A DNA stretch of 64,000 nucleotides from Parachlamydiaceae bacterium (GCA_013821265.1 JACDHD010000005.1:236-64235); one strand, 5' to 3'. Shown: positions 17,140-17,352, counted from the stretch's first letter. Notes: generated by a model from the letters alone, not told the origin. Numbers and translations are program-made.

Positions 17140-17352
17140 TTAAACGTTTGTTTGTTTTAATCGTCCTGTTGTTGGACGATTAACTGGCCCAGAGCTTGAT
17201 TCACCTGAGCACATGCCGGCTAAAGCATCAGAAAATGACAGATCAACTTCTGACATTTGGTATAGGGCGTTGTTAGAGATTTGAGACATTTCTGACTCAA
17301 TCACTGTATATTCTTGCACGATCTGAATATTATTTACGGGGATCTCCAACAT
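17140..17352 (-). CDS. Candidate RiPP (azoline/TOMM) precursor peptide
   Basis: 70 aa with a strong RBS (aaaaggagaagtttATG). Divergent from the heterocyclase operon. Acidic leader containing DLSFSDALAG, then a Cys/Ser/Thr/Gly-rich tail MCSGESSSGPVNRPTTGRLKQTNV. Confidence 0.6.
   Translation of the reverse strand: MLEIPVNNIQIVQEYTVIESEMSQISNNALYQMSEVDLSFSDALAGMCSGESSSGPVNRPTTGRLKQTNV

Follow-up and report, generated by a model that had tools for sequence, protein, structure and literature searches.

The 64,000-nucleotide stretch of Parachlamydiaceae bacterium DNA analysed here (GCA_013821265.1, JACDHD010000005.1:236-64235; hereafter the window) carries a 70-codon open reading frame (ORF) which, we consider likely, encodes the precursor of a linear azole-containing peptide synthesised on ribosomes and modified after translation (RiPP), the product of a self-contained four-gene cassette of Parachlamydiales. 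The ORF lies divergent from three tightly packed plus-strand genes, identified by Pfam and NCBIfam as those of a DUF6176 protein, a 731-aa heterocyclase and an oxidase. A preliminary description of this DNA had proposed that the small divergent ORF is the precursor of the neighbouring heterocyclase, and this central proposal is supported by purifying selection on the ORF and by its linkage, one per operon, in 11 loci. The four genes and the ribosome-binding site of the first are as follows.

17140..17352, minus strand: putative precursor-peptide gene, ATG start, 70 codons and a stop (ORF list and translation)
17359..17362, minus strand: Shine-Dalgarno sequence GGAG, with the ATG 6 nt downstream
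17604..17957, plus strand: DUF6176 protein of 117 aa (PF19673, E 3e-23), with which the enzyme operon begins
17944..20139, plus strand: fused heterocyclase, 731 aa, in which an N-terminal winged-helix RiPP recognition element (RRE) is followed by E1-like and YcaO domains
20148..21551, plus strand: azoline oxidase dependent on flavin mononucleotide (FMN), 467 aa, with ThcOx-type N-terminal and SagB/nitroreductase domains

Homologues and selection on the ORF

The translation of 17140..17352 on the minus strand is exactly the peptide quoted in the preliminary description, and the strong ribosome-binding site noticed there could be located as well: AAAAGGAGAAGTTT stands immediately 5' of the ATG on the minus strand, the GGAG being at 17359..17362. 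The homologous loci, 11 of 11, have GGAG 5-8 nt (mostly 6-7) ahead of the ATG. The DNA is AT-rich and the surrounding 20 kb contain 128 ORFs of at least 40 aa, hence the length of the ORF alone is not beyond chance, and this abundance of short ORFs is what would favour a chance ORF in AT-rich intergenic DNA. A word-indexed search returned 18 homologues of 66-70 aa with 51-99% identity. The nearest, MBA3957075.1 from a Parachlamydiaceae metagenome-assembled genome (MAG), is 99% identical over the full length of the query (taken without its first codon) and is annotated as 'hypothetical protein'; another homologue is a protein of Candidatus Rubidus massiliensis. An exhaustive profile search among 1.84 billion representatives gave 30 matches, 26 of which are peptides of 47-76 aa. 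About 36 distinct homologues (56-76 aa) entered the alignment, and all residue frequencies given below were calculated from 36 sequences. Pairwise comparison of 11 genes by the Nei-Gojobori method yielded a ratio of nonsynonymous to synonymous substitution rates (dN/dS) of about 0.2, mostly 0.15-0.45 where dS was unsaturated.

The homologues of similar length, the low dN/dS, the retained GGAG and the synteny, which is kept through inversions and relocations, together show that the ORF is a genuine gene, conserved and under purifying selection. Judged by the same homologues, dN/dS, linkage and conservation of the Shine-Dalgarno site, the chance-ORF explanation is refuted, and we give it a negligible probability. 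No match was obtained in the Rfam and tRNA scans of 15200..17700, and thus an RNA-gene explanation of the ORF does not apply. Scans of the peptide against Pfam (E <= 0.01) and NCBIfam (E <= 1) gave no match to any curated precursor family. Three members of the family (P0170, P0179 and P0182) keep the leader (…E-[VIA]-[DN]-L-S-[FI]…) and lack the C-S-G-x-x-S-S core, being cut or diverged after the leader block; they may be pseudogenes or assembly artefacts.

Linkage to the enzyme operon and mobility of the cassette

As far as the compared sequences go, the peptide gene is genetically locked to the DUF6176/heterocyclase/oxidase operon. A single peptide gene stands beside the DUF6176-YcaO-oxidase operon in 11 distinct loci (the window, L001, L004, L006, L085, L087, L088, L089, L091, L093 and L097), and a profile hidden Markov model (HMM) of the peptide detects exactly one copy at every operon-bearing locus with enough sequence; L005, which has the operon with only 66 nt upstream of DUF6176, was left out of the linkage count. 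The same profile HMM found no copy in 78 LynD-like loci of other phyla, and none in L068, a Chlamydiota locus without DUF6176. The relative orientation of the gene is not fixed: it is divergent and upstream in the window, L001 (Rubidus), L004, L089, L091/92, L093/94 and L097/98, co-directional and upstream in L006, L087 and L088, and in L085/86 convergent and downstream of the oxidase. The loci compared have unrelated flanking genes, and the identity of the partner heterocyclase to that of the window ranges from 95% down to 37%. The preliminary description had named a different precursor, placed elsewhere in the closest homologous clusters, as evidence that would overturn its proposal; the same peptide gene is found beside each operon. 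A fifth cassette gene was looked for as well, and the peptide-side neighbours in other loci proved unrelated to one another and to a 191-aa ORF of the window; no other conserved small ORF or neighbour was found in any cassette locus.

The extent of the cassette was delimited by comparison with L089, the closest relative having different flanking genes.

17052..21603: four-gene cassette, about 4.55 kb, the only DNA common to the window and L089 (blastn, 88-93% identity)

Homology to L089 ends 88 nt past the peptide stop and 52 nt past the oxidase stop, and the GC content within the cassette is 0.33-0.40 versus 0.43-0.52 in most flanking segments. Because the homology to L089 is limited to 17052..21603, the GC content is low and the flanks differ, the cassette is best seen as a unit that has moved between genomic sites. 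No terminal repeats of note were found at its borders. In L087 the cassette sits among transposase fragments.

Enzymes encoded in the cassette

The 731-aa protein contains a YcaO domain (PF02624, E 1.7e-76, whole model covered; TIGR03604 above cut-off), a winged helix at residues 4-78 (PF21084), and a match to TIGR03882, 'TOMM precursor leader peptide-binding protein' (1.6e-31; TOMM, thiazole/oxazole-modified microcin). Its RRE and E1-like parts align to LynD domains 1-2, and the protein is matched near-full-length by LynD (4v1t, 3.5e-139) and TruD (4bs9, 1.2e-132), and by MusD (7u58, 1.1e-135), with the best stretch at 221-728. In an alignment of 22 homologues, columns E382, E385 and R386, which form the E-x-x-E-R stretch of the YcaO domain, do not vary, and the identity to cyanobacterial homologues is only 33-38%. 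The oxidase matches the ThcOx N-terminal domain (PF22767, 2.1e-18), PF00881 (2.7e-16) and TIGR03605 SagB (4e-47, full model covered). These matches place the two proteins with the LynD/TruD-type heterocyclases and the ThcOx/SagB-type oxidases, in each case over full-length models. A YcaO cyclodehydratase, an E1-like/RRE partner (here fused), a SagB/McbC-type dehydrogenase and an adjacent precursor-like gene are thus the components recognised by sequence, and with them all genomically testable defining features of a linear azole-containing peptide (LAP) cluster of the LAP/TOMM type are present.

The heterocyclase gene is intact in the window and split in L089 (2099..4294, 187 + 541 aa) and L006 (6959..9192, 116 + 628 aa), representing either sequencing frameshifts or decaying copies. 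In other phyla, LynD-like genes (L016, L026, L028, L035, L039, L041, L045, L053 and L064) adjoin three precursor families, PatE-type, NHLP and Nif11. The sequence E-L-S-E-E-x-[LF] is found in all three, which implies one recognition motif common to unrelated leader scaffolds.

Anatomy of the peptide

Residue numbers refer to the full 70-aa protein. The alignment of 36 sequences divides it into the following parts, with the degree of conservation expressed as the mean frequency of the commonest residue.

17215..17352, minus strand: leader-coding part, residues 1-46
Residues 1-15, M-x-D-x-P...V-x-E-Y: moderate conservation, with D3, P5 and E14 at least 92% (mean 0.57)
Residues 16-32: linker, variable in sequence and length (mean 0.34)
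Residues 33-46: strongly conserved block (mean 0.73)
Residues 47-56: strongly conserved block (mean 0.78)
Residues 57-70: tail, variable in sequence and length (mean 0.29)
17215..17250, minus strand: candidate recognition sequence E35-V-D-L-S-F-S-D-A-L-A-G46, the most conserved leader block
17185..17214, minus strand: conserved core M47-C-S-G-E-S-S-S-G-P56
17143..17184, minus strand: variable C-terminal tail V57-V70, VNRPTTGRLKQTNV, 5-20 residues long across the family

The family signature can be written as [E]-x-D-L-S-F-x-[DNE]-x-L-(x)-A-G, then x-C-S-G-x-x-S-S-[G]-P; a loose tail motif, N-R-P-T, is seen in many members, not in all. Residues L38, F40, C48 and S49 are invariant, D37 (97%), S39 (97%), S53 (97%), G50 (94%), S54 (94%) and L44 (92%) are highly conserved, and G46 is kept in 86%. 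Polar residues separate V36, L38 and F40, an alternation as expected of an amphipathic beta-strand. The F-x-x-x-[LIV] leader motif, recognised earlier in the single sequence, is conserved in the family: F40 is found in all 36 sequences and L44 in 92% of them, with I, M or S in the remainder. The division into leader and core after A-G, also suggested before, fits the pattern of conservation, and some members have A-G-G or G-A-G at this point.

The earlier count of 1 Cys, 4 Ser and 3 Thr holds for the C-terminal 24 residues, MCSGESSSGPVNRPTTGRLKQTNV. The accompanying idea that these residues are sites of heterocyclisation is retained in part: C48 and S49 are invariant and S53 and S54 nearly so, while the Thr residues lie in the tail and, since the tail is variable, are unlikely to be key modification sites. 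Judged by conservation, heterocyclisation is most likely at C48 and S49. Even beside a YcaO protein that is only 37% identical, the core is retained. When the peptide alone was modelled with its alignment by AlphaFold2 (AF2), the predicted local distance difference test score (pLDDT) was 57 and the predicted template modelling score (pTM) 0.18; the modelled peptide has no stable fold of its own, as expected for a short RiPP precursor.

These features also bear on the suggestion that the peptide is a conserved small protein of the cassette and not a substrate, that is, a regulator, an immunity factor or a chaperone, with the true substrate encoded elsewhere or being a larger protein. Such a role would agree with the whole C-S-G-x-x-S-S-G-P segment being unusually invariant for a RiPP core, and with the lack of a protease or exporter linked to the cassette. 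We nevertheless regard it as improbable, given the foldless AF2 model, the invariant Cys-Ser pair downstream of a leader-like motif, and the lack of an alternative conserved small ORF or neighbour in any locus; in addition, known fused RRE-YcaO enzymes of the same type act on small neighbouring precursors.

Two resemblances of the tail were observed. Its G55-V70 segment (17143..17190), G-P-V-N-R-P-T-T-G-(R/Q)-(L/V)-K-K, resembles a motif of P0187, a 288-aa metagenomic protein in which Y-G-P-V-N-R-P-T-S-D-K-V-K-K occurs three times (profile E 1.6e-5). It is also faintly like Q-P-V-N-R-I-T-T-G-Q-L at the start of cyanobactin leaders, a match that is not significant.

Proposed maturation of the peptide

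From these results, a maturation scheme may be proposed for the peptide as an azole precursor. The winged-helix RRE of the 731-aa enzyme would bind the leader, most likely at E35-V-D-L-S-F40...L44, and, by analogy with PatE/LynD and McbA/McbB, binding would proceed by beta-strand addition. Using ATP, the YcaO domain would cyclodehydrate C48 to a thiazoline and probably S49 to an oxazoline, possibly S53 and S54 too. The FMN oxidase would then aromatise the rings to azoles, and reaction of both C48 and S49 would give a thiazole-oxazole pair like those of microcin B17. Finally, functions not encoded in the cassette would cleave off the leader, whose end is A-G (in relatives A-G-G or G-A-G), and export the product. 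The bis-heterocycles of microcin B17 originate at Gly-Cys-Ser sites. They are thiazole-oxazole pairs, and the study that describes them also defines the Fxxx[L/I/V] leader motif and places F8 and L12 of McbA (the FxxxL motif) in pockets of the RRE (PMC6395948). In the cyanobactin system, PatE adds its L(X)4L strand to the RRE sheet of LynD (PMC12455567).

Several points weigh against this scheme. No leader protease or exporter was found in the cassette or its annotated neighbourhood, and the core is unusually conserved for a cyanobactin-type RiPP. DUF6176 is also found apart from any YcaO gene, and homology to PatE, considered below, was rejected. The main objection concerns spacing: no more than 4 residues (5 in the A-G-G/G-A-G variants) lie between L44 and C48, versus about 12 in PatE-type and about 8 in NHLP-type precursors, and this distance may be too short for docking on the RRE and reaching the active site at the same time. 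The N-terminal block could then be the true recognition sequence. In Nif11-type ORFs adjoining a LynD-like gene of L016, a Cys stands 5 residues past ELSEE-x-[LF], a possible parallel for the short spacing.

The spacing leads to a second architecture for a precursor, in which the N-terminal block (M-x-D-x-P ... I-V-Q-E-Y-V-V, residues 1-17) is the strand bound by the heterocyclase RRE, and the E-V-D-L-S-F...A-G block serves another partner, for instance DUF6176, a protease or the oxidase with its two RRE-like domains, or stays in the product. The leader does have two separate conserved blocks with a length-variable linker between them, the 4-5-residue gap is far below that of PatE-type and NHLP-type precursors, and ThcOx-type oxidases have RRE copies of their own (PMC6395948), the window oxidase carrying a ThcOx N-terminal domain. 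However, conservation is lower in the N-terminal block than in the DLSF block (0.57 versus 0.73), it is the DLSF block that has both motifs with experimental precedent, [DE]-L-S...L and F-x-x-x-L, and a similarly short spacing is found in other putative substrates of LynD-like enzymes (L016). We therefore hold this architecture to be possible but doubtful, and take binding through E35-L44 as the preferred arrangement.

Comparison with known systems

The peptide had been labelled PatE-style, and the label is useful at the level of motifs and as a functional lead; as a statement of homology or a family assignment it failed in profile-profile comparison. When the 36 chlamydial peptides were compared by hhalign with 7 PatE-type precursors taken from cyanobacterial loci, the probability was about 1% and the recognition motifs were unaligned. 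The protease motifs that flank cyanobactin cores, G-L-E-A-S and A-Y-D-G, had been reported as missing, and neither occurs in the 70-aa peptide. PatA/PatG-type proteases or a macrocyclase were found neither in the cassette and its annotated neighbourhood in the window nor among the called genes of the homologous loci.

The chlamydial system shares several features with the cyanobactin systems (PatE/TruE, PatD/TruD/LynD and ThcOx): the heterocyclase has the same RRE, E1-like and YcaO architecture, the oxidase also has a ThcOx N-terminal domain, and the leader carries an acidic-L-S...L motif near the core. In contrast to the cyanobactin systems, the chlamydial precursor is not detectably homologous to PatE, its leader has L38(X)5L44, one residue longer than the L(X)4L of PatE (PMC12455567), with V36/L38/F40 similar in character, and the cassette lacks the motifs of recognition sequences II and III (RSII and RSIII), PatA/PatG and a macrocyclase. 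There is one invariant core in the chlamydial peptide instead of hypervariable cassettes, a DUF6176 gene is always present, and the hosts are Parachlamydiales and not cyanobacteria.

One may ask whether the peptide belongs to the PatE family, as a true cyanobactin precursor whose cluster no longer has the proteases it once had. The near-full-length match of the heterocyclase to LynD and TruD, the strong match to MusD over 221-728, the ThcOx domain of the oxidase, the motif-level likeness of D-L-S-x-x-x-x-L-(G)-A-G to E-L-S-E-E-A-L-G-x-x-G, and the faint likeness of the tail G-P-V-N-R-P-T-T-G to Q-P-V-N-R-I-T-T-G-Q of cyanobactin leaders would all be in line with this. Set against them are the hhalign result, the lack of RSII and RSIII motifs in the peptide, the lack of a PatA/PatG-type protease in any of the 11 loci, the mere 33-38% identity of the enzyme to its cyanobacterial homologues, and a core that is invariant, not hypervariable, which makes membership of the PatE family highly unlikely.

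With microcin B17 (McbA and McbBCD) the chlamydial system would share a linear product formed without a macrocyclase, and it has in common with it the F-x-x-x-L leader motif, a Gly/Ser/Cys-rich core with adjacent Cys-Ser, and a SagB/McbC-type FMN dehydrogenase. The two differ in that the RRE/E1-like and YcaO parts are fused here, McbD being only about 15% identical to LynD (PMC6395948), and in that there is one candidate Cys-Ser site here versus nine heterocycles in microcin B17 (PMC6395948). Furthermore, leader motif and core stand much closer together in the chlamydial peptide, and its cassette has no linked genes for a TldD/E-type protease, an exporter or immunity.

The NHLP/Nif11 azoline pathways (e.g. 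MprE/MprC) likewise use a LynD-like RRE-YcaO enzyme, and several chlamydial members have L-A-G-G (in some followed by M-C-S-G) or L-G-A-G before the x-C-S-G core, a parallel to the V-A-G-G leader ends of NHLP precursors that adjoin other LynD-like genes. Unlike those precursors, the chlamydial peptide has no NHLP or Nif11 domain match in NCBIfam and has a short leader predicted to be unstructured, and no C39-peptidase transporter was found in the annotated neighbourhood of its cassette. Overall, the predicted pathway is of the LAP/TOMM type, built from cyanobactin-type enzymes, and is not a cyanobactin pathway. We class the peptide with the LAP/TOMM precursors, as a putative new family whose named members have so far come from Parachlamydiales only.

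DUF6176, the accessory gene

DUF6176 is encoded in every cassette locus. Its AF2 model (pLDDT 90.8) is a ferredoxin-like alpha+beta barrel, with LsrG, ABM monooxygenases, NIPSNAP and sugar mutarotases as the nearest folds, all with weak scores (TM 0.5-0.64). The protein is better conserved than the heterocyclase: P0133 and P0139 are 62% identical to that of the window, versus 37% for P0053 and P0052, the YcaO proteins paired with them by equal length of their longest contigs. About 107 DUF6176 clusters are present in the database. A Parachlamydia acanthamoebae paralogue (L095 7001..7336) follows a PMT-family glycosyltransferase and has no YcaO gene beside it. A second DUF6176 copy, P0134, comes from a Parachlamydiaceae MAG with the locus-tag prefix H0X51, the same as that of the window's peptide.

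Upstream signals and neighbouring DNA

In a 5-locus alignment, the best-conserved intergenic block is the 60 nt upstream of the peptide gene, the rest being 53% identical. This block contains a candidate promoter.

17385..17413, minus strand: promoter-like element of the peptide gene, made up of a -35 sequence TTGAAA (17408..17413) and a -10 sequence CATAAA (17385..17390) that stand 17 nt apart

We infer that TTGAAA/CATAAA may serve as the promoter of the peptide gene; a strict-consensus promoter and terminator scan returned nothing on the peptide's strand and left this element unflagged. The cassette lies among housekeeping genes, with zwf, opcA and pgl upstream and ispH downstream, followed by dnaX-like, tmk and others. 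The region of about 1.8 kb from pgl to the cassette (15250..17050) is without a supported gene. It contains a weak methyltransferase trace at 16296..16451 (Pfam E 0.016) and a weak redoxin/thioredoxin-like fragment at 16851..17042 (E 0.05), both probably pseudogene debris. The 191-aa ORF mentioned above (15745..16320, minus strand) has a hydrophobic C-terminus and a counterpart in no related locus.

Discussion

Automated annotation already calls the Rubidus enzyme a SagD-family protein, and the peptide is annotated only as hypothetical. Within the searchable library, we found no paper tying Parachlamydia or Chlamydiae to a YcaO heterocyclase or a RiPP cluster, and no paper mentioning DUF6176. 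A broader picture would combine a first RiPP family from Chlamydiota with a small thiazole/oxazole peptide as its product, a mobile cassette in amoeba-associated Parachlamydiales, a frozen core with one specific target in the host or a competitor, and an obligatory DUF6176 new to RiPPs; we hold it to be speculative and rather unlikely to be true in all its parts. The core x-C-S-G-x-x-S-S-G-P has hardly changed as the heterocyclase diverged to 37% identity, and in this picture its constancy would reflect the single target, unlike the diversifying chemistry of cyanobactins; DUF6176, for its part, might act as a new factor of tailoring or presentation.

Since the enzymes are of a well-understood type, the finding would extend a known class and reveal no new one. 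Chlamydial secondary metabolism is almost unexplored, and the phylum is not known for RiPPs. A defined candidate precursor, likely modification sites and a compact 4.55-kb cassette would open the pathway to heterologous expression, a route that matters here, as metagenomic sequence is all that is available for many of the organisms. The frozen core points to a specific target within the biology of amoeba and symbiont.

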